A stretch of DNA of 64,000 bases from an uncultured bacterium (GTDB taxonomy: Bacteria > Patescibacteriota > Minisyncoccia > UBA6257 > 2-01-FULL-56-20), in NCBI GenBank assembly GCA_963768625.1, contig CAVYIK010000003.1, forward strand, positions 129,274-193,273. The letters run 5' to 3'. How positions within the stretch are numbered: the stretch's first letter is position 1; each line of letters starts with the position of its first letter. A program made the position numbers and the translations under genes. Positions 2,331-12,787 of this stretch are shown one piece after another. Under the pieces are notes generated by a model. It ran no database searches and was not told the DNA's origin. It was given only the letters and a program-made list of their open reading frames with translations.

Positions 2331-4402
2331 TTATGCTTTAGGAGCATCCTGCGAACCCAGCGGCAAGGAAACGGTAAATTTGCTCCCCTTCCCAATGGCG
2401 CTCTCGACCATGATGGTGCCGCCGTGCATCTCCGCGATCTTCTTGCAGATATCAAGGCCAAGGCCCGTACCAGAGGAGCGATCGCCGCTGATCCGGTAAA
2501 AACGCTCAAAGATATGCACCGCATCTTCGGGCGCGATACCCGATCCAGTATCTTCCACAACAATCTCTGCCCGCTCTCCCTCCTTCTTTCCCGAAAGAGT
2601 GATCTTCCCTTCGCGCGGCGTGTGCTTCAGCGCATTGCTTACCAGATTCAAGATCACCGCTTTCAATTTTTCCCTATCGGCAAGCACGGGGAAATTGCCG
2701 CTCGAATAAGAAAGTGTTATACCGGCATTCTCCGCAAGTATTGAACAGTCGTTATAGACCTCCTCCAGCAGATTCTCCACCAAAATCTCCTGTTTGTGAA
2801 GCTTTTCTTTAGAAAAATTTAATCTCGCGATGGCGAGGAGGTGATCCACCATCTGCGCCATGTGCCCAAGCGTTGTCGAAGCGACCGCGAGCGCCGTTTT
2901 CCGGTTCCCTTTGCGCTTCCCCTCCAGGATGTCCATATTGGCCTTGAGCACCACTACGGGCGTTTTGAGCTCGTGCGAAATGTCGGTGACAAATTTCGAC
3001 TGTGCCTCTTGCATGTTCTGGAGCTCCGCCGTCCGCTCGCGCACCCGCCCCTCTAACGTCTCGCCGTGGCGCTGGGCTGCTTCATACAACCGTGCGTTCT
3101 CGATGGCCATGCCAGCCTGGTGTGTGAGCACTGATAATAGTTCGATATCCTTGAGCCGGAAAATATCACCGGAGAGTTTTTTCCCCAAAAGCATAGTGGC
3201 GGTCGAACCCTCACGCGCGAACAAGGGAAGGATGGCCGCGATCCCCGTCTCCGCGTCCGGATTCTCTCCCTGCTCCTGGAAAAAGACCGTTCCGCGCGTC
3301 CCTACCGCAAGAGCCATTATCGCCTCTTCGTATTTCATTCCCCCCGCCGGCACCCGCGGACCGTGGAAGAAGGAGCGCATGAGGCGCCTTCCGGTCGCAT
3401 CGTGGATCACGAAAACGGTGCGCTCGGGCTTCACGGTCCGCGCAAGAAAACCGTCGATCGTCCGCAGCAATGTTTCGAGATCGATGCTTGAGTGGAGTAA
3501 CGGTCCCAGTTCATGCACCGCCATATCATATTGATAGCTTTTCCGGAAAAAAATCGGGTCGGTGATCCGCTCGAAAAACGACGTAGCCATACAAAACCGA
3601 ATGCACCGATGATCGCCGCGGCAACATCGTCGCCCCAGCCCTCTATTTGTGTAAATCGGCGGACAATTAGGTCGATGCCGAAAAAAATGCACGCGACAGC
3701 GCCTATCAAGAAAGCGTATACAACGCTGCGCTGAATAACGACGGCAATATCCAAAAACTGATGCCGCACGATGGCATACGCTGCCATACCTATGAATATA
3801 ACTGAGAACAATGGCCCAAAGAGATTGAACGAAAAAATGTGGCATGCCGGCAGGATGACGTTCGTGATAAATGCAAAGAAGAGGAATATGCCTGCGCCGA
3901 CGGTAAGGTATCGTATCTGCACGCGCCGAATGCCTTGCATGCGACGATACTTCAAAAAAAGTTTTCCGATACCCCAGAGGATATAGGCGCCCATAACGGC
4001 TCCGAAAAGAAGGATGAGCGGGCCGTAGCTTGCTTCGAGATGGCCAGCGCTGAGCCGTGCGGTGCGGACCACGAGATCCGTGGGGGTAAGAAGAAAAATA
4101 GCAAGCCACGGCACAAGGCAGAATAAACAGGATCTCTCCGGGGCGTTTCCATCAGGGAAGACTTCTGCGAGAAGTACGAATCCCAGAACCATGATCTCTG
4201 CGCCTAAAAATGGAAGCGTGGTGAGCCACGCTTGTCCCGTAGAAGATAAGAACAAGATGCTCGCGCTCCAACTTACGATCCCAAATACAAATAGGAAAAA
4301 GGAGCGGTGCACTATGCCGCGCGGATTTTTGAAAAGCACGTAGCCTCCTATCGCAAGGTTTAAAACGTCTATAACGAGATGGGCGATAAGCGTAAGGAGC
4401 AT
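2331..4402 (-). CDS. sensor histidine kinase (7TM sensor-GAF-HisKA-HATPase), split by one frameshift near 3575-3600 in this assembly
   Basis: ORF 3431..4402 encodes a multi-TM N-terminal domain. ORF 2331..4109 encodes a GAF-like region, the H-box ISHELKTP and the G2 box GTGLGLDICK. The two overlap out of frame at an A5/T5 run, and both have nonsense N- or C-terminal tails in the wrong frame. Confidence 0.7.
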
Positions 4403-6245: not shown

Positions 6246-6247
6246 TG

Positions 6248-6317
6248 CGGGGGCACTAGGAATCGAACCCAGGTTAGCGGTTTTGGAGACCGCCGTCCTA
6301 CCACTGAACGATGCCCC
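6248..6317 (-). tRNA. tRNA-Trp (anticodon CCA)
   Basis: Cloverleaf read directly. Acceptor GGGGGCA/TGCCCCC; D-stem GTTC/GGAC; anticodon stem GCGGT/ACCGC; anticodon loop CTCCAAA; T-loop TTCGATT. Confidence 0.85.
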
Positions 6318-6340
6318 CTCGCTACTATTGTAGCGCAATT

Positions 6341-6520
6341 TTACTTCCCCGTGATCCTCCCCTCTTTGTGGAGCGTTGCCTTGCGGCACCAATTACAAAA
6401 CTTCTTGAATTCGATCTTGCGCTCCACCGTCTTCTTGTTTTTGGTGGTGTAATAATTACGCCGTTTGCAAACGGAACAGCGGAGGGTGATCAATTTGTCC
6501 GCGCGCTTTACTTTCGCCAT
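6341..6520 (-). CDS. rpmG: 50S ribosomal protein L33
   Basis: MAKVKRADKLITLRCSVCKRRNYYTTKNKK...CNWCRKATLHKE, a 4-Cys zinc ribbon typical of L33. Start taken at the internal Met. Confidence 0.85.
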   Translation of the reverse strand: MAKVKRADKLITLRCSVCKRRNYYTTKNKKTVERKIEFKKFCNWCRKATLHKEGRITGK

Positions 6521-6570
6521 ACGGGAAATACTACCCCAGATTCCCAGAAAGTGCAACTGTCGGACCCTTG

Positions 6571-6838
6571 AGCCGATGGCCGGATTTGAACCGGCGACCT
6601 ACTCCTTCATGTGCACCTCAACTTCGCAACGCTTATATGAGGATTAGACTGTATCTTGCGCATACCGCTCGCGCGGCGCAGCGTCCCTTGTCAGTCGTTC
6701 GGGCGAAATCGTTCGCCACGGTCTTAGCCCCTGCGGGCCTTTAACCGTAATTCGGGATTCGCGGACAGGTTTCCCCGCCCGCGGGCATGGCCTTTCCGGC
6801 CCACCATGGAGTTGCTCTACCAGCTGAGCTACATCGGC
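6571..6838 (-). tRNA. tRNA-Thr (anticodon GGU) interrupted by a group I intron after U36
   Basis: 5' exon 6803..6838: GCCGATG-TA-GCTC-AGCTGGTA-GAGC-A-ACTCC-AUGGU. 3' exon 6571..6607: AA-GGAGT-AGGTC-GCCGG-TTCAAAT-CCGGC-CATCGGC-T. Acceptor, D, anticodon and T stems all pair. The mature loop AUGGUAA gives anticodon GGU. Confidence 0.7.
6608..6802 (-). ncRNA. group I intron (about 195 nt) in the anticodon loop of tRNA-Thr
   Basis: P1 pairs exon CAUGGU with intron GCCAUG, with a U.G wobble at the 5' splice site. The intron ends in G. The J8/7-like motif AAGAUACAGUC is present. P7 candidate is GGCUAAGAC/GUCUAAUCC with an internal A mismatch. A GAAA-capped P2 is present. Confidence 0.65.
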
Positions 6839-6886
6839 ACTGACCCTAATATACCCCAAACCTGTAGCTTCTTCAAATTTCTCTTG

Positions 6887-6957
6887 AGCCGGAGAGAGGA
6901 GTCGAACCTCCGTCATCGCTTTACAAAAGCGTTGCTCTGCCGTTGAGCTACTCCGGC
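6887..6957 (-). tRNA. tRNA-Thr (anticodon UGU)
   Basis: Acceptor GCCGGAG/CTCCGGC; D-stem GCTC/GAGC; anticodon loop TTTGTAA; T-loop TTCGACT. Confidence 0.8.
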
Positions 6958-7580
6958 GTTATTCCCAGAAAACTATCCTTGTATTCATCTATCCATCCGA
7001 GTATTAATTTCAATAATTTTTTATCAGCATACTTTAGGCCAATAGTTCCATATTGGGACTTATTTTTATATGTGCCCTGCTTACCTATATGGACATAACT
7101 AGGATAAAAATTTTCCCTACCAATCTTTGTTGTTTTTGCCCAAAATTCTTCAAGAAAGTCCTTGTCCTGATCGGGGTACATGTGGATCATAAGTTTAATC
7201 CTTTTTTCATCAATCCCGCAAATTCCTCTCAGAAATAACAGGAATAATCTTATCATCTCGGGGTTGCTATTCGAAAATCCCACAGAACCACCAGTCTTGG
7301 ATCCCTCGCCCCAATATAGCATTATCCCGGCGATTTTCAAATCGCTATCCCGAGGCGATAAATCCTGTTTTAATAGAAATGGTTGTTTTTTAAATTTAGT
7401 AACATTAAGGCTCGTAATTGCCTCACTGATGGAACGCTTAACGATTTTATTTTTCTCCAAAATACACCTCACCTTCCAAAATGGAATTCCAATGTTTTGA
7501 CTAATTTGAGCTACGGAAAGTCTATCTTCGAGATACATTTTAATAATCGTTCTATCTCCGATAGTTTTCATATACTTCAT
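6948..7580 (-). CDS. hypothetical HTH-containing protein in an AT-rich island (possibly homing-endonuclease-like)
   Basis: 210-aa Lys-rich ORF in a markedly AT-rich stretch (6958..7700). N-terminal HTH LSVAQISQNIGIPFWKV. Its 3' end overlaps the 5' end of tRNA-Thr(UGU) by 10 nt. Confidence 0.4.
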   Translation of the reverse strand: MKYMKTIGDRTIIKMYLEDRLSVAQISQNIGIPFWKVRCILEKNKIVKRSISEAITSLNVTKFKKQPFLLKQDLSPRDSDLKIAGIMLYWGEGSKTGGSVGFSNSNPEMIRLFLLFLRGICGIDEKRIKLMIHMYPDQDKDFLEEFWAKTTKIGRENFYPSYVHIGKQGTYKNKSQYGTIGLKYADKKLLKLILGWIDEYKDSFLGITPE

Positions 7581-7723: not shown

Positions 7724-10700
7724 ATGCCTAAATTCGTCCACCTTCATACGCATTCCCATTATTCCCTTCTTGACGGCCTTTCAAAGATAGATCCGCTCAT
7801 AAAGCGCACGAAAGAGCTCGGCATGGACGCCGTCGCCCTTACCGACCATGGCGCGCTCTACGGCGCCGTGGAGTTTTATAAGGCGGCGAAGAAGAGCGGC
7901 ATGAAGCCGATCCTCGGCGTTGAGACCTACGTCGCGCCGCGCGACCGGTTTTCCAAAGAAGCAAGCGAAAAATATTACCACCTGGTCCTCCTCTGCGAGA
8001 ACAAGACGGGGTGGAAGAATCTCGATCAAACTCGTTTCAAAGGCCCACCTTGAAGGATTTTATTACCGCCCGCGCGTGGACAAGGACCTGCTCCGCGAAT
8101 ATCACGAGGGGCTGATCGCGCTTTCCGGCATGCCTTGGCGGCGAGATTGGGCAAGCGCTCCTTGCCGGGCGATTCGAAGAAGCGAAGAGGATCGCACTTG
8201 AATATCGCGATCTCTTCGGCGCGGAGAATTATTTCCTGGAGGTCCAAAAGCATCCCGCACGTTCCCGATTCCGAGCAGATAGAGCCGCTCCTCGTAAAGC
8301 TTTCCGACGAGACCGGCATCCCGCTCGTCGCGACCCAGGACAGCCACTACCTCCGTTCGGAAGACAACGAATATCACGACGTGCTGCTCGCCGTGCAGAC
8401 CGGCAACAAGCTGGCGGACGACGACCGGATGACCATGAAAGAGGATGATTTTTCGCTCCTCTCGCCGGAGGCGATGGCGGAAAAGTTCGCCCATATTCCC
8501 GGCGGCACGAGGCCATGCGCACCGCGGAGATCGCTGCGCGCTGCAACGTGGAACTTGAAGCTGGGGAAAGTACTGCTCCCCAATTTCCCGAAACCGGAAG
8601 GAAAAACCGCGAACGCCTATCTCCGCGAGCTCGTGGAGGAACGGCTACCGAAAAAGATTCCCGCCCGAGACGCAGACCAAAGAAATGGACGAGCGGCTGG
8701 AATACGAGCTCGGCGTCATTGAAAAGACCGGTTTCGCGGATTACTTCTTGATCGTCCAAGACCTCATCACCTGGGCAAAGGCGCATGGCATCGCCGTGGG
8801 GCCGGGCAGGGGCTCGGCAGCGGGCAGCTTGGTGTCCTACGTGCCTTGGACATCACCGACCTCGATCCCCTCACCTACGGGCTCCTCTTTGAGCGTTTCC
8901 TGAACCCGGAGCGCATCCAGATGCCGGACATCGACATAGACTTCGCCGACAAGCGGCGCGACGAGGTGCTCGCGTACGCCCGCGAGAAATATGGCGAGGA
9001 CCGAGTCGCGCGCATCATCACGTTCGGGACGATGGCGGCGCGCGCCGCGATCCGCGATGCCGGCCGCGCAATGGGCTACTCGTACGCCTTCTGCGACCAG
9101 ATCGCGAAATTGATTCCCTTCAATCCCACACAAGGCATGAAGGAGGGGTGGCTGGATGAGTGCCTGAGGAAAGTGGCTGAGCTGCGTGCGCTCTATGACG
9201 CGAAATGCGGAAGCGAAAAAATTGATCGATACCGCGCGTCATCTGGAGGGCGTGGCGCGGCACGCATCGGTCCATGCCTGCGGCACCGTGATCGCCAAGG
9301 AACCGCTCATTGAGCGCGTGCCGCTGCAGTTCGCGCCGCAGGAAAAGGACATCATGATCACGCAATTCGAGATGCACGCCATTGAAGACCTCGGTCTTCT
9401 GAAGATCGACCTTCTGGGACTCAAGAACCTCACGTATCATCGAAGACGCCATCCGCCTCATAAAAGAGCTCCACGGCGAGACCGTGGACATCTCGAATAT
9501 CCCGCTTGACGACAAGAAAACCTTCGACCTCCTCCAGAAAGCCGATACGACCGGCATCTTCCAGTTCGAATCGAGCGGCATGCGCCGGTACATGAAAGAG
9601 ATAAAACCGACCGAGCCTTGAGGACCTGATCGCCCTCGTGGCCCTCTTCCGACCCGGGCCGATGGAACTGATCCCATCCTTCATCAAACGCAAGCACGGC
9701 GAAGAGAAGATCGCCTATCTCCATCCCAAGCTTGAGCCCATCCTCAAAAACACCTACGGGGTCGGCGTGTACCAGGAACAAATGATGCAGATCGCCCGCG
9801 ACCTTGCGGGCTACACGCTCCCCGAAGCGGACACGCTCCGCAAAGCGATCGGCAAGAAGATCAAGTCGCTCCTTGACGAACAGGCCGTAAAGCTCGTCGG
9901 CGGCATGATCAAGAACGGCATCCCCGAACGGACCGCGAAGGCCATCTGGGAGCTCTTCCCGCCATTCGCCCGGTACGGGTTCAATAAGTCGCACGCCGCC
10001 TGCTACGCCCTCATCGGCTACCAAACGGCCTACCTGAAGGCCCACTATCCCGAAGAATTCATGGCGGCGCTCCTGAACGCCGAGGTGAGCGACATAGAGC
10101 GGATCTCGTTCCTTATCCAGGAAGCGAAGCAATCCGGGCTTGAGATCCTGCCGCCGGACATCAAGAAAAGCTTCGTCAACGTTCACGCCGGAAGGCGAAA
10201 AGATCCGCTTCGGCCTTGAAGCGGTAAAGAACGTGGGCTCGGAGATCACAAAAGCGATCATAGAAGAGCGAACGCGCCGCGGCCCGTTCAAGAGCTTTGA
10301 GGAAGTGCTCATGCGCATCCAGCATAAGGACCTGAACAAGAAATCAATCGAAAGCCTGGTCAAAGCGGGCGCGTTCGATTCGCTCGGCATCGAGCGTAAC
10401 CAGGCACTCCAGAACATGGACGACATCCTTCGCTTCGCGGTCGCCGCGCGGAGGAACGGCGGCGCGCAGAGCGGTGCGAGCTCGCTCTTCGGCGACACGA
10501 TGCCCGCCGCCGCGCTCAAGCTGAAGCCCGCGCCGCCCGCGACGAACGCCGAAAAGCTCATCTGGGAAAAGGAGCTGATCGGATTCTATCTCTCCGAACA
10601 TCCCCTCGCAGCTCACGCCGAGACGACTGAGAGCGTCGGCGTAAAACCCATTGCCGAACTCATGGCGATGAAGAACGAACGTCTCCTCGTGCGCACGGCC

Positions 10701-10928
10701 GGCGTCGTTTCAAAGATGAGAAAGATATTCACAAAAAGCGGCCAGCCATGATCTTCGCGACCATCGAGGACGCATCCCAGAAGCCGATCGAGGTCGTCGT
10801 GTTCAACAGCGTCTTGAAAAGACCGCGGCCGCATGGGTGGAAAACGCGCCCGTCATCGTGCAAGGACGGATGTCCCCGCGCGACGGCGAAATGAAATTGA
10901 TCTGCGACGACGCAAAGCGGTTAGCGTA
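7724..10928 (+). CDS. dnaE: DNA polymerase III alpha subunit (DnaE), split by at least 9 frameshifts in this assembly
   Basis: PHP domain [18 protein letters not shown]. Consecutive out-of-frame ORF fragments carry the DnaE palm, fingers, HhH and OB regions, and each fragment continues in a neighbouring frame. Confidence 0.85.
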
Positions 10929-11319
10929 GGCTGTTGTGATATTTGTGCGGCTCGTGCGGCGCAAGGACAACGATCTCAACGTCCCAATCAAAATCGGGGA
11001 GATGTTCCTCGAGATCGCGCTTGAGCGCGGCTTGGTCATATCCGAGCGCGATCACGCCGGGGCGATATTTCTTCACCACCCCATAGTCACCAAGCTCGGC
11101 GTCTCCCGGAACGGCCGTATCGGCAAGATCTTCCGTAGCGAGCGCCTCTATCCTCTCTTTTGTGTTCCTGCGCGGCGGATGATTTTTCAATTGTTCCACG
11201 ACCGCATCTTGCGCGACCGCCACGATCAGATAATTGCCCCGCAACCGCGCCTGCTTAAGAAACGCCCGATGGCCCTCATGAATACCATCGAACGTGCCGA
11301 AGACCAAAACCTTTTTCAT
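10921..11319 (-). CDS. cytidylyltransferase-like nucleotidyltransferase (HxGH family; FAD synthase / RibL-like)
   Basis: [21 protein letters not shown] carries the HxGH motif of the nucleotidyltransferase superfamily. About 133 aa. Confidence 0.55.
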   Translation of the reverse strand: MKKVLVFGTFDGIHEGHRAFLKQARLRGNYLIVAVAQDAVVEQLKNHPPRRNTKERIEALATEDLADTAVPGDAELGDYGVVKKYRPGVIALGYDQAALKRDLEEHLPDFDWDVEIVVLAPHEPHKYHNSLR

Positions 11320-12787
11320 TTCTTGGGCCGCATGAGCGGGAAGAACACGCACTCCCGTATGGGCCGATCCATGAGGACCGCAAAGAGCCGCTCCGAGACG
11401 CCGAATCCGCCCGCGGGCGGCATGCCATACGCCAAGCGCCTCCAGAAAATCTTCGTCCAGGCGCTGCGCTTCCTTATCCCCTGCCGCGCGGGCCTTTTCT
11501 GCTCCTCAAACCGCGCCCGCTGGTCAAGCGGGTCGTTCAGCTCTGAAAATCCCTTGCCGAGCTCCGTGCCGCACGCAATGACCTGGAACCGCTCCACTAC
11601 CTTCGGGTTCTCGGGCAGGCGCTTGGCAAGCGGTTCCACCTCCACCGGCGGGTCTACGAGGAAGCACGGCTGGACCATGCTTGGCCGACGTCTTTTTAAA
11701 AATAAGGTCTATGAGTCGCCCCTTGCCCGCGCCTTTTTCAAATTCGATCTTCATCTCCTGCGCTTTTTCCGCGAGCGCCTCGCGACTCGCCGCCGTCGGG
11801 TCGATCCCAATCGCCTTCTTGAATGCTTCAACATATTCCACTTTCGGCCACTTCTTTGACCAATCAACTTTCTTGCCTTCGAATTCCGTCGTGAGCCCGC
11901 CGCGGGTATTTTTGATCGCCTCCTTGTACGTTCGCTCTACAAGCTCCATCACGTCGTTGTAATCGCGGTACGCCCAGTAGAACTCAAGTTGCGTGTAATC
12001 CTGAAGGTGCTCACGGTCAATGCCTTCGTTCCGGAAAATGCGGCCGATCTCGAACACCTTGTCAAATCCGCCGACGAGAAGCCGCTTGAGCGGCAATTCC
12101 AAGCGAAATGCGGAGATAAAAATCCGTATCAAGCGCGTTGTGATGCGTCTTGAACGGCTCCGCCTCCGCGCCGCCCGGCACGCTTTCCAGAACCGGCGTT
12201 TCCACTTCCAAAAATCCCTCCTTTTTTAAGACGCCACGGAACGTCTCCCAGAATACCGTTTTCTTTTTGAATAACTCGCGCAGTTCGGGCGTCGCGATAA
12301 GATCCAAATAGCGCTTGCGCAAGCGCAACTCTTCGTCCTCAAGCCCTGCCCACTTGTCCGGCAGCGGCAGCAAACTTTTCGCCGCCATCTGAAGTTCGTG
12401 AACTTCCATACTTTTTTCGCCGCGCTTTGTCGTAAAAAGCATGCCCGTTGCGGAAACAAAATCTCCGAAGATCCAGAACTGACCTCCAAAAATCAAGGTC
12501 TTTTGCCGCGTCCTTCTGAATGCATCCTCCTTTAGAACAAGCTGGATTTCCCCGCTTTCGTCCTCAATGTCCGCAAAAATAATTTTTCCCTGGTCACGCA
12601 GGTTCCGCAATCGTCCCGCTAGCGAGATGAGATTTTTTGACTGTTCAAAGTCTTGGAACTTTTCGAAGTTTTCCAAAACCTCCGCGATAGCATGAGTCCT
12701 TTTGACGCGCGCCGGATACGGATCAATGCCCGCCTTTTTGAGCAGTTCCAGTTTCTTCCGCCGTTCCTTCACGATATCGTCCAGCAT
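11316..12787 (-). CDS. lysS: lysyl-tRNA synthetase class II, at least 3 frameshifts in this assembly
   Basis: N-terminal OB anticodon-binding domain (ORF 12062..12787); class II motif 2 FRNEGID...; C-terminal GMPPAGGFG. Fragments lie in three frames. Confidence 0.85.

Follow-up and report, generated by a model that had tools for sequence, protein, structure and literature searches.

A split tRNA-Thr(GGU) gene

The window analyzed here, a stretch of 64,000 nucleotides from a contig of an uncultured patescibacterium (CAVYIK010000003.1), carries on its minus strand a tRNA-Thr(GGU) gene that is split by a group I intron. The gene runs from 6838 to 6571 and consists of a first exon, a 195-nt insert, and a second exon. 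An earlier reading of the sequence (the first-pass annotation) had proposed a compact group I intron after tRNA position 36; its coordinates (6571..6838) and its 195-nt gap were correct, and the strand, which it left unstated, is the minus strand. Both the comparative evidence and an uninterrupted allele that is identical at 73/73 positions bear out this proposal. The parts of the gene are as follows.

6838..6803 (-): tRNA-Thr(GGU) 5' exon, 36 nt, tRNA positions 1-36, with the anticodon GGU at its end; called by ARAGORN on the joined exons and equal to the 5' part of L333:1568-1641, an uninterrupted allele.
6802..6608 (-): group I intron, 195 nt, between U36 and A37; 205.8 bits with the family covariance model, E = 3.7e-47 with a profile from which the window was left out, and a covariation-supported fold.
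6607..6571 (-): tRNA-Thr(GGU) 3' exon, 37 nt, tRNA positions 37-73; discriminator U at 6571, then CAAG, so that CCA is not encoded.

When joined in silico, the exons (GCCGAUGUAGCUCAGCUGGUAGAGCAACUCCAUGGU, 36 nt, and AAGGAGUAGGUCGCCGGUUCAAAUCCGGCCAUCGGCU, 37 nt) were called by ARAGORN as a 74-nt tRNA-Thr(GGU) with a perfect cloverleaf and the loop AUGGUAA, the mature loop predicted at first pass. The acceptor (7 bp), D (4 bp), anticodon (5 bp), and T (5 bp) stems are all perfectly paired across the gap, also as claimed. The split gene was reported neither by default ARAGORN nor by the Rfam tRNA model, though both call seven other tRNAs in the window. In intron mode, ARAGORN detected the gene with its boundary shifted by 3 nt and called it a tRNA-His(AUG) split at 33/34; the shift arises because AUG is present at both boundaries. 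The first-pass annotation had raised the case of another, intact tRNA-Thr(GGU), and the 64-kb window contains none elsewhere.

Insertion point and uninterrupted alleles

Close relatives were sampled through their L33 proteins (75-90% identical), a choice that is blind to the intron. The search for intron-less alleles that had been suggested at first pass was productive, since six of these lineages carry an uninterrupted tRNA-Thr(GGU). The best of them, L333:1568-1641, is identical to the joined exons of the window at 73/73 positions, the allele of L334 is identical at 72/73, and those of the remaining intron-less lineages are identical at 69-71/73. All six share the gene order dnaE / tRNA-Thr(UGU) / tRNA-Thr(GGU) / rpmG / tRNA-Trp.

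The first intron base is G and the first base of exon 2 is A, while the last base of exon 1 is U and the last intron base is G. Because these boundary bases differ, the insertion lies exactly at U36|A37 and the tRNA-His(AUG) alternative is excluded. The rule that group I introns follow a U and end in G (omega-G), taken together with the uninterrupted allele, likewise rules out the tRNA-His(AUG) call made by ARAGORN for the window.

The intron itself is present in two close lineages, L321 (91% identical to the window intron) and L323-325 (87%). Among the eight close lineages sampled it is thus present in two and absent from six (among L329-L340), with exons that are identical at 69-73/73 positions. 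This patchy presence points to recent loss or gain, though the intron has no endonuclease gene. As a test of vertical inheritance, intron distances were compared with the distances of the exons (r=0.07), L33 (r=0.15), and a neighboring 210-aa open reading frame (ORF) (r=-0.09), and the correlations were weak or saturated.

The Thr 36/37 intron family

To search for further members, we used a two-gap DNA pattern composed of the P7 5' strand, J8/7 with the P7 3' strand, and a tRNA T-arm at the proper distance, and scanned contigs from one genome per species. At least 119 loci matched in these species-level genomes. By their labels, 98 belong to Patescibacteria (Saccharibacteria and >20 other named candidate phyla), 11 to unlabelled bacterial metagenome-assembled genomes (MAGs), and 10 to other groups. 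The nearest relatives of the window by L33 and the 210-aa ORF are labelled Paceibacterota or Minisyncoccia. Family size is underestimated by this pattern, which misses the intron of L321 because of a GACUGG in place of GACUGA.

ARAGORN in intron mode reported a split tRNA in 113 of the loci. At 103 loci the intron lies at the canonical anticodon position, with tRNA-Thr(GGU) as host, U before the intron, G at the intron end, and 36/37 as the site; the anticodon loop is AUGGUAA in 98 of these and UUGGUAA in 5. Counted over all canonically placed family introns, omega-G is found in 103/108. Intron length ranges from 177 to 257 nt, with a median of 197. No host tRNA other than Thr(GGU) occurs among the matches listed, though the pattern accepts any tRNA. 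In many relatives, ARAGORN in intron mode called Arg(GCG), His, or Pro instead, and these calls were ruled out on the same grounds as the tRNA-His call in the window.

A covariance model built from the family (R1) was run on 99 loci, and each of them gave one match of >=98 bits, full-length or truncated by the contig end. The window intron scored 205.8 bits with this model, second best of 101. A profile hidden Markov model made from 102 homologous introns with the window left out (nhmmer) found a single match in the window, 6810..6601(-), full length, with E = 3.7e-47. Identity between the window intron and the members of the family alignment, A1, is 54-86%. The window intron is a member of this family.

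Nakagawa et al. (2026, PMC13011429) recently published introns of this kind, in tRNA-Thr(GGU) at 36/37, from three complete Patescibacteria genomes under the name 'divergent group I introns'. tRNAscan-SE finds only 2 tRNA-Thr in each of these genomes, versus 3 in most Patescibacteria, and the split gene is therefore probably the sole GGU copy. The split tRNA-Thr(GGU) gene is probably essential.

The 10 loci with labels from outside the candidate phyla radiation (CPR) are named Gammaproteobacteria, Pedobacter, Ignavibacteriales, Kapaibacterium, and Methanoperedens. The oddly labelled members are L207 (NZ_JMIY01000006.1, 'Candidatus Methanoperedens nitroreducens'), L122, L140/144/145/157/198/236, L187, and L222. 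Such labels probably reflect mis-binned or mis-named Patescibacteria contigs and not true hosts.

Comparative evidence for a group I fold

The window intron has the hallmarks of a group I intron, namely a U before the 5' splice site, a terminal G, the J8/7-like motif AAGAUACAGUC, and a GAAA-capped P2; all of these had been noted at first pass. Over J8/7, the P7 3' strand, and J7/9, the window sequence AAGAUACAGUCUAAUC equals the RF00028 consensus AAGAUAUAGUCuaauc at 15/16 positions. The group I structure was drawn from the window copy, the 103 distinct family sequences were aligned with MAFFT (A1), and the pairs were counted. Over the 59 pairs as drawn, 90.2% of pair cells are standard-paired, versus 30-42% when the 3' partners are slid by 1-3 columns. 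Double changes were found in 44/59 pairs (1083 cells). In a model-fitted alignment, 91.0% of cells are paired and the covariation score is 0.505. The minimum free energy fold of the window intron alone recovers P2, P4-P5, P6, P7, P8, and P9 (z = -2.8). The elements of the structure, listed from the 5' splice site apart from the P1 guide, are these.

6784..6786 (-): P1 guide G17-C18-C19; its partner in the exon is G34-G35-U36 (6805..6803), where U36 forms the wobble with G17 (6786).
6789..6801 (-): P1 extension hairpin GGCC-GGAAA-GGCC, variable within the family.
6760..6783 (-): P2, a 10-bp stem with a GAAA tetraloop; 9/10 pairs have double changes.
6754..6757 (-): P3 5' strand UCCC, pairing with GGGA at 6687..6684 in a pseudoknot with P7.
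6718..6748 (-): P4 (ACGGU/ACCGU), J4/5 UAAA, P5 hairpin (6739..6726), and J5/4; P4 is invariant in the 103 sequences, and 4/5 pairs of P5 have double changes.
6702..6717 (-): P6 hairpin GGCGAA-CGAU-UUCGCC; all 6 pairs covary, e.g., GC 80 / AU 15 / CG 7.
6684..6701 (-): J6/7 CGAAC, P7 5' strand GACUG (6696..6692), J7/3 ACAA, and P3 3' strand GGGA; an invariant or nearly invariant block, CGAACGACUGACAAGGG.
6659..6683 (-): P8, with outer 3 bp, an internal loop (CUGCG..UAUG) like an 11-nt tetraloop receptor, inner 5 bp, and a GCGA loop; all 8 pairs covary.
6647..6657 (-): J8/7 AAGAUA and P7 3' strand CAGUC; family-invariant but within the search pattern, with 15/16 bases equal to the RF00028 consensus gAAGAUAUAGUCuaauc.
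6608..6644 (-): P9.0 (AU 6644..6643 / AU 6610..6609), 99% paired; P9 stem-loop 6642..6616, 98% paired; omega-G at 6608.

The group I core topology with its P3/P7 pseudoknot is backed by double changes in P3, P5, P6, and P8. The three C-G pairs of P3 form in 97-100% of members, with U-A replacing C-G through double changes, and P6 alternates in the family between GGCG/CGCC and CCCG/CGGG. At the loop-closing pair of P2, GC occurs 50 times, AU 47 times, and GU 6 times, with zero mismatches, and the family loop is GNRA. P7 is a clean, invariant 5-bp helix, GACUG/CAGUC. It lacks the unpaired A that the first-pass annotation had placed in P7; extension of the helix by an A-U pair would bulge a C instead. 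P9.0 is formed by the two bases after CAGUCUA and the two before the terminal G, and its pairs appear as GC/GC, AU/AU, AC/GU, and GU/AC; this pairing independently marks the 3' splice site. P7.1/P7.2 and P2.1 are absent from the window intron.

The three exon-guide pairs of P1 are present almost without exception in A1 (GC 103/103, GC 103/103, UG 102/103). The first-pass annotation had correctly placed a U.G wobble at the 5' splice site, here U36.G17, and a G at the intron end, here 6608. It had, however, drawn P1 as CAUGGU/GCCAUG with G12 as the wobble base. This longer helix can be drawn in the window, but all six positions are paired in only 8/103 members, all of them immediate relatives of the window that carry CAUG in place of the CCUG of most members. 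The G12 and G17 helices are mutually exclusive in the window; since both present the same U36 in the wobble, the predicted splice site is unchanged.

Core sequences like that of the Thr family also occur in viruses. The motif GACUGA(20-50 nt)AAGAUAnAGUC was found at >=120 loci in viral contigs (IMG/VR L002-L121, including giant-virus MAGs), and at least 11 of the 18 examined lie inside RF00028 matches of 50-75 bits, in the part that comprises P7, P3', P8, and J8/7. The motif in block CGAACGACUGACAAGGG is likewise found in the core of RF00028-positive introns. The viral motif span is very often identical, 63 nt, and several viral contigs hold 2-3 RF00028-positive introns.

The comparison also bears on tertiary structure. 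L2 (columns 75-78 of A1) is GAAA in 64/103 members, and 36 of these 64 have a receptor-like P8 loop, CU[A/G/U][A/C/G]G...[U/A/C]A[U/A/C]G. Among the 39 members with other L2 loops (GYAA and others), P8 is receptor-like in 2 and is plain and shorter in 37; with GYAA in L2, P8 is a short plain helix rich in C-C/G-G pairs. The association between L2 and P8 gave p = 5e-8 by Fisher's test, uncorrected for relatedness. The classical 11-nt GAAA receptor is CCUAAG...UAUGG, and the window combines a GAAA L2 with CUGCG...UAUG in P8. An L2-P8 clamp is reportedly known from the Azoarcus intron. As judged from the sequences, this association suggests a conserved L2-P8 tertiary contact in the Thr family.

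Genes around the split tRNA

On the minus strand, the gene order is the 210-aa ORF (7580..6948), tRNA-Thr(UGU), the split tRNA-Thr(GGU), rpmG, and tRNA-Trp, with dnaE divergent and upstream.

6957..6886 (-): tRNA-Thr(UGU), first gene of the tRNA-rpmG cluster; ARAGORN and Rfam tRNA.
6520..6341 (-): rpmG, ribosomal protein L33; Pfam PF00471, E=5e-19.
6318..6247 (-): tRNA-Trp, downstream of rpmG.

The two tRNA-Thr genes are alike in having a discriminator U and then a CAAG trailer, not CCA (6883..6908 and 6567..6592). Pfam gave no match for a 90-aa ORF at 6644..6916, which overlaps the intron as well as two tRNA genes and had rightly been set aside at first pass as an artefact. A search for repeats around the tRNA cluster gave nothing informative, and an exact-protein look-up of the window L33 led to a single contig, which begins at rpmG.

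The 210-aa ORF differs from its surroundings in base composition (32-39% G+C, versus 50-62% in the flanks). It matches no Pfam family apart from weak helix-turn-helix matches and falls into a 364-member family of 'hypothetical' proteins from Patescibacteria. The spacing between dnaE and tRNA-Thr(UGU) is 767 nt in the window and 100-220 nt in close relatives; from this shorter spacing it follows that the ORF is an insertion. In metagenome loci selected by the ORF, it adjoins tRNA-Thr(UGU) in 56/73 and tRNA-Tyr in 3, and 6/80 have the intron. In loci selected by the intron, the ORF adjoins the split tRNA in 52/105. Intron and ORF show no association, given that only 6/80 ORF loci have the intron and that close relatives have the intron without the ORF. 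In our reading, the ORF is a free-standing LAGLIDADG-like gene with the head of the tRNA cluster as its target, whichever tRNA occupies that place.

Elsewhere in the window, dnaE (7724..10751, +) and lysS (11316..12787, -) are each split into several overlapping ORFs in different frames, whereas in relatives dnaE is a single product of ~1070 aa. The histidine kinase region at 2331..4402 gives a similar picture. The breaks in dnaE and lysS suggest assembly indel errors or, less likely, pseudogenes.

Proposed splicing pathway and alternative explanations

We consider it very likely that the locus is a functional tRNA-Thr(GGU) gene interrupted at U36|A37 by a 195-nt ORF-less group I intron of a Patescibacteria-wide Thr 36/37 family. 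From its structure we infer that the intron is catalytic and acts independently of proteins. The precursor would be transcribed together with the tRNA-Thr(UGU)/rpmG/tRNA-Trp cluster. The anticodon G34-G35-U36 would serve as the substrate strand of P1, paired to the guide G17-C18-C19 with U36 in the U.G wobble, and the P4-P6 and P3-P8-P7 domains would fold around it, probably clamped by docking of the L2 GAAA into the receptor-like loop of P8. An exogenous guanosine bound in P7 would then attack after U36. P9.0 would carry the terminal G (6608) into the guanosine site, and ligation of the exons would give the loop AUGGUAA, with a junction reading CUCCAUGGU|AAGGAG. The exons would probably be aligned by the anticodon stem, as in other tRNA introns. 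The GCC guide accounts for the restriction of the family to tRNA-Thr(GGU).

Several observations speak against this reading or weaken the evidence for it. Foremost is RF00028, which the first-pass annotation had proposed as a check: it does not match the window at the gathering score or 6450-6950 even at E<=10, and 18 other family members are also unmatched at the gathering score. The same model is blind to the published Thr-class introns (PMC13011429), and its seeds (n=12) include none from bacteria (Williams 2020, bioRxiv 10.1101/2020.01.27.920355). A probable reason for its failure is that the family departs from those seeds in the P4-P6 region and in the short peripheral helices. The silence of RF00028 is a matter of model insensitivity, not of intron absence. 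In the reverse direction, the matches of the family model to viral group I introns of the canonical kind are no more than weak (E about 1e-3 to 1e-2).

Other such points concern the alignment, the helices, and the assembly. The covariation score of A1 is 0.422 versus 0.154 for shuffled alignments, and 0/500 shuffles reach 0.422, but the aligned sequences are related and this control overstates significance; for the same reason, the slid-partner control is the fairer one. P4, P7, and J8/7 are invariant and hence uninformative on pairing, and for P7 and J8/7 the search pattern itself prescribes the sequence. Only 3 bp of P1 involve the exon, and in 74/103 members P10 has 0-1 bp; with P10 this weak, the anticodon stem probably holds the exons together. 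The frame breaks in dnaE and lysS make sequence errors in the window possible, though no odd indels appear when the intron is aligned to the family model. Published in vitro assays were confined to Asn and Asp introns, which self-splice (PMC13011429).

A stronger claim can be made for the family, namely that it is the smallest natural self-splicing group I class (177 to ~200 nt, below the 205-nt Azoarcus intron) and that it is still mobile in the CPR despite having no endonuclease gene. We hold this combined claim to be rather doubtful. The case for mobility is the patchy presence of the intron among relatives with identical or nearly identical exons, in 2/8 sampled lineages. The intron could spread by reverse splicing through the anticodon-complementary GCC guide or, alternatively, with the help of the AT-rich LAGLIDADG-like gene, which is free-standing and independently inserted at the head of the cluster, as in 'collaborative homing'.

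The very short P1 and the weak P10 would also fit a group I fold that splices inefficiently by itself and needs a protein cofactor, either a maturase-like LAGLIDADG protein such as the product of the 210-aa ORF (7580..6948) or a general RNA chaperone, and LAGLIDADG maturases are well established for organellar group I introns. We regard such a dependence as improbable. Half of the intron-bearing loci have no ORF nearby, the close relatives L321 and L323 have the intron without it, and just 6/80 ORF-bearing loci carry the intron. E89, the acidic residue of the LAGLIDADG-like motif, never varies, a better fit to a nuclease than to a pure maturase. Other small bacterial tRNA introns self-splice, those assayed in Patescibacteria (PMC13011429) and, reportedly, that of Azoarcus.

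It is very improbable that the insert is the remnant of a decayed group I intron that no longer splices, in a locus that is a tRNA pseudogene. Such a remnant could go unrecognized by RF00028, as this insert does, and would be in keeping with the apparent frameshifts in other genes of the window. It is contradicted by core junctions and helices that are all intact, by the rank of the window (second best of 101) with the family model, and by compensatory changes that keep the structure in >100 species. The exons, moreover, equal an uninterrupted allele at 73/73 positions, the 64-kb window has no other tRNA-Thr(GGU), and the split gene corresponds to the missing third tRNA-Thr of the published complete genomes. 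Finally, an insertion of another kind (an archaeal bulge-helix-bulge intron, a group II fragment, a small mobile element, or an assembly chimera) has the lack of an RF00028 match as its sole support and can hardly be credited, given the same insert at the same site in >=119 independent assemblies, the group I topology with P3/P7 pseudoknot, 5' U.G, omega-G, and P9.0, a J8/7-P7 sequence equal to the group I consensus, a 36/37 site with conserved U-1 and G-omega that follows the group I rule and not that of bulge-helix-bulge introns, and a length of 195 nt, far below group II intron size.

Significance and comparison with known systems

The first-pass annotation knew of no intron described in tRNA-Thr or in a CPR-like genome, but the Thr(GGU) 36/37 type in Patescibacteria is listed in PMC13011429, which cites Castelle 2018 for divergent group I introns. 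The published class and the window intron share the tRNA, anticodon, site, and phylum, both are RF00028-negative, and nothing essential differs between them. As the class is already published, the window copy adds a member and is not a discovery. The Thr class is reported as missed or mis-called by RF00028 and ARAGORN and found by tFind (PMC13011429), whose model gpI_bact_tRNA detects it (Williams 2020; PMC13011429); the same work raised the number of bacterial tRNA intron types from 4 to 21 (Williams 2020). ARAGORN mis-calls such as Arg(GCG) 34/35 are also common to both; the Arg(GCG) call that we obtained for L138 (CP011209.1, a complete Wolfebacteria genome and a family member) has a published counterpart in GCA_001029635.1 (PMC13011429). 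The texts of PMC13011429 and Williams 2020 do not mention how widespread the family is (>=119 species-level genomes across >20 candidate phyla), its structure as tested by covariation and including P9.0, or the L2-P8 covariation, nor do they mention sizes down to 177 nt or presence/absence polymorphism among relatives with identical exons.

For annotation, the consequence is that tRNAscan-type models, default ARAGORN, and RF00028 miss the gene, and the genome then seems to lack a tRNA for ACC/ACU. A spurious 90-aa ORF is called across the split gene, and completeness estimates for Patescibacteria are affected. With >100 natural variants between 177 and 257 nt, a covariation-tested secondary structure, and a probable L2-P8 clamp, this very compact group I core would be useful as a model of a minimal ribozyme, provided that self-splicing is confirmed.

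One contig also holds a group I intron of a different kind. In L219 (Candidatus Doudnabacteria, VMFF01000064.1), at 3563-3778 (-) and ~800 nt from the Thr(GGU) intron, it splits an apparent tRNA-Tyr(GUA) at 35/36 (loop CUGU|AAA), with the canonical core AGAGACUAGA...GAAGAUAUAGUCC; ARAGORN does not call this tRNA. A Tyr 35/36 intron type is listed in PMC13011429.

Among better-known introns, the cyanobacterial and plastid tRNA-Leu(UAA) introns (34/35) and the Agrobacterium tRNA-Arg(CCU) intron (36/37), all of IC3, rely on the anticodon stem for splicing, as the window intron probably does, but they have other host tRNAs and lineages and are detected by standard models. The role of that stem in holding the exons is attributed to Zaug 1993, as cited in PMC13011429. 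The Patescibacteria introns validated in vitro (Asn/Asp) are closer to the window intron, as they share its phylum and its anticodon-loop location, are mostly ORF-less, and are grouped with the Thr class in the published tree, where the Thr introns sit on long branches among Patescibacteria subgroup IA introns (PMC13011429). They differ in being RF00028-positive, in lying one position earlier, and in some having HNH endonuclease genes. The probable Thr-family L2-P8 contact, in contrast to this IA placement, resembles that of IC3 introns.

The tRNA-Ile(CAU) intron of Azoarcus sp. BH72, a description credited to Reinhold-Hurek and Shub in 1992, is said to be 205 nt long and to belong to subgroup IC3. 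Like the window intron, it is inserted in the anticodon loop after position 36, lacks an ORF, is very compact, is built from P1-P2, P4-P6, and P3-P9 without peripheral extensions, and reportedly has 3 exon bp in P1 and a GAAA L2 docked into a P8 receptor, a docking that is probable for the window intron. The host tRNA is another one and the core sequence differs, the window having AAGAUACAGUC as in the RF00028 consensus. Self-splicing is demonstrated for the Azoarcus IC3 intron and is a prediction for the Thr class, which the published tree places with IA and which has members down to 177 nt.

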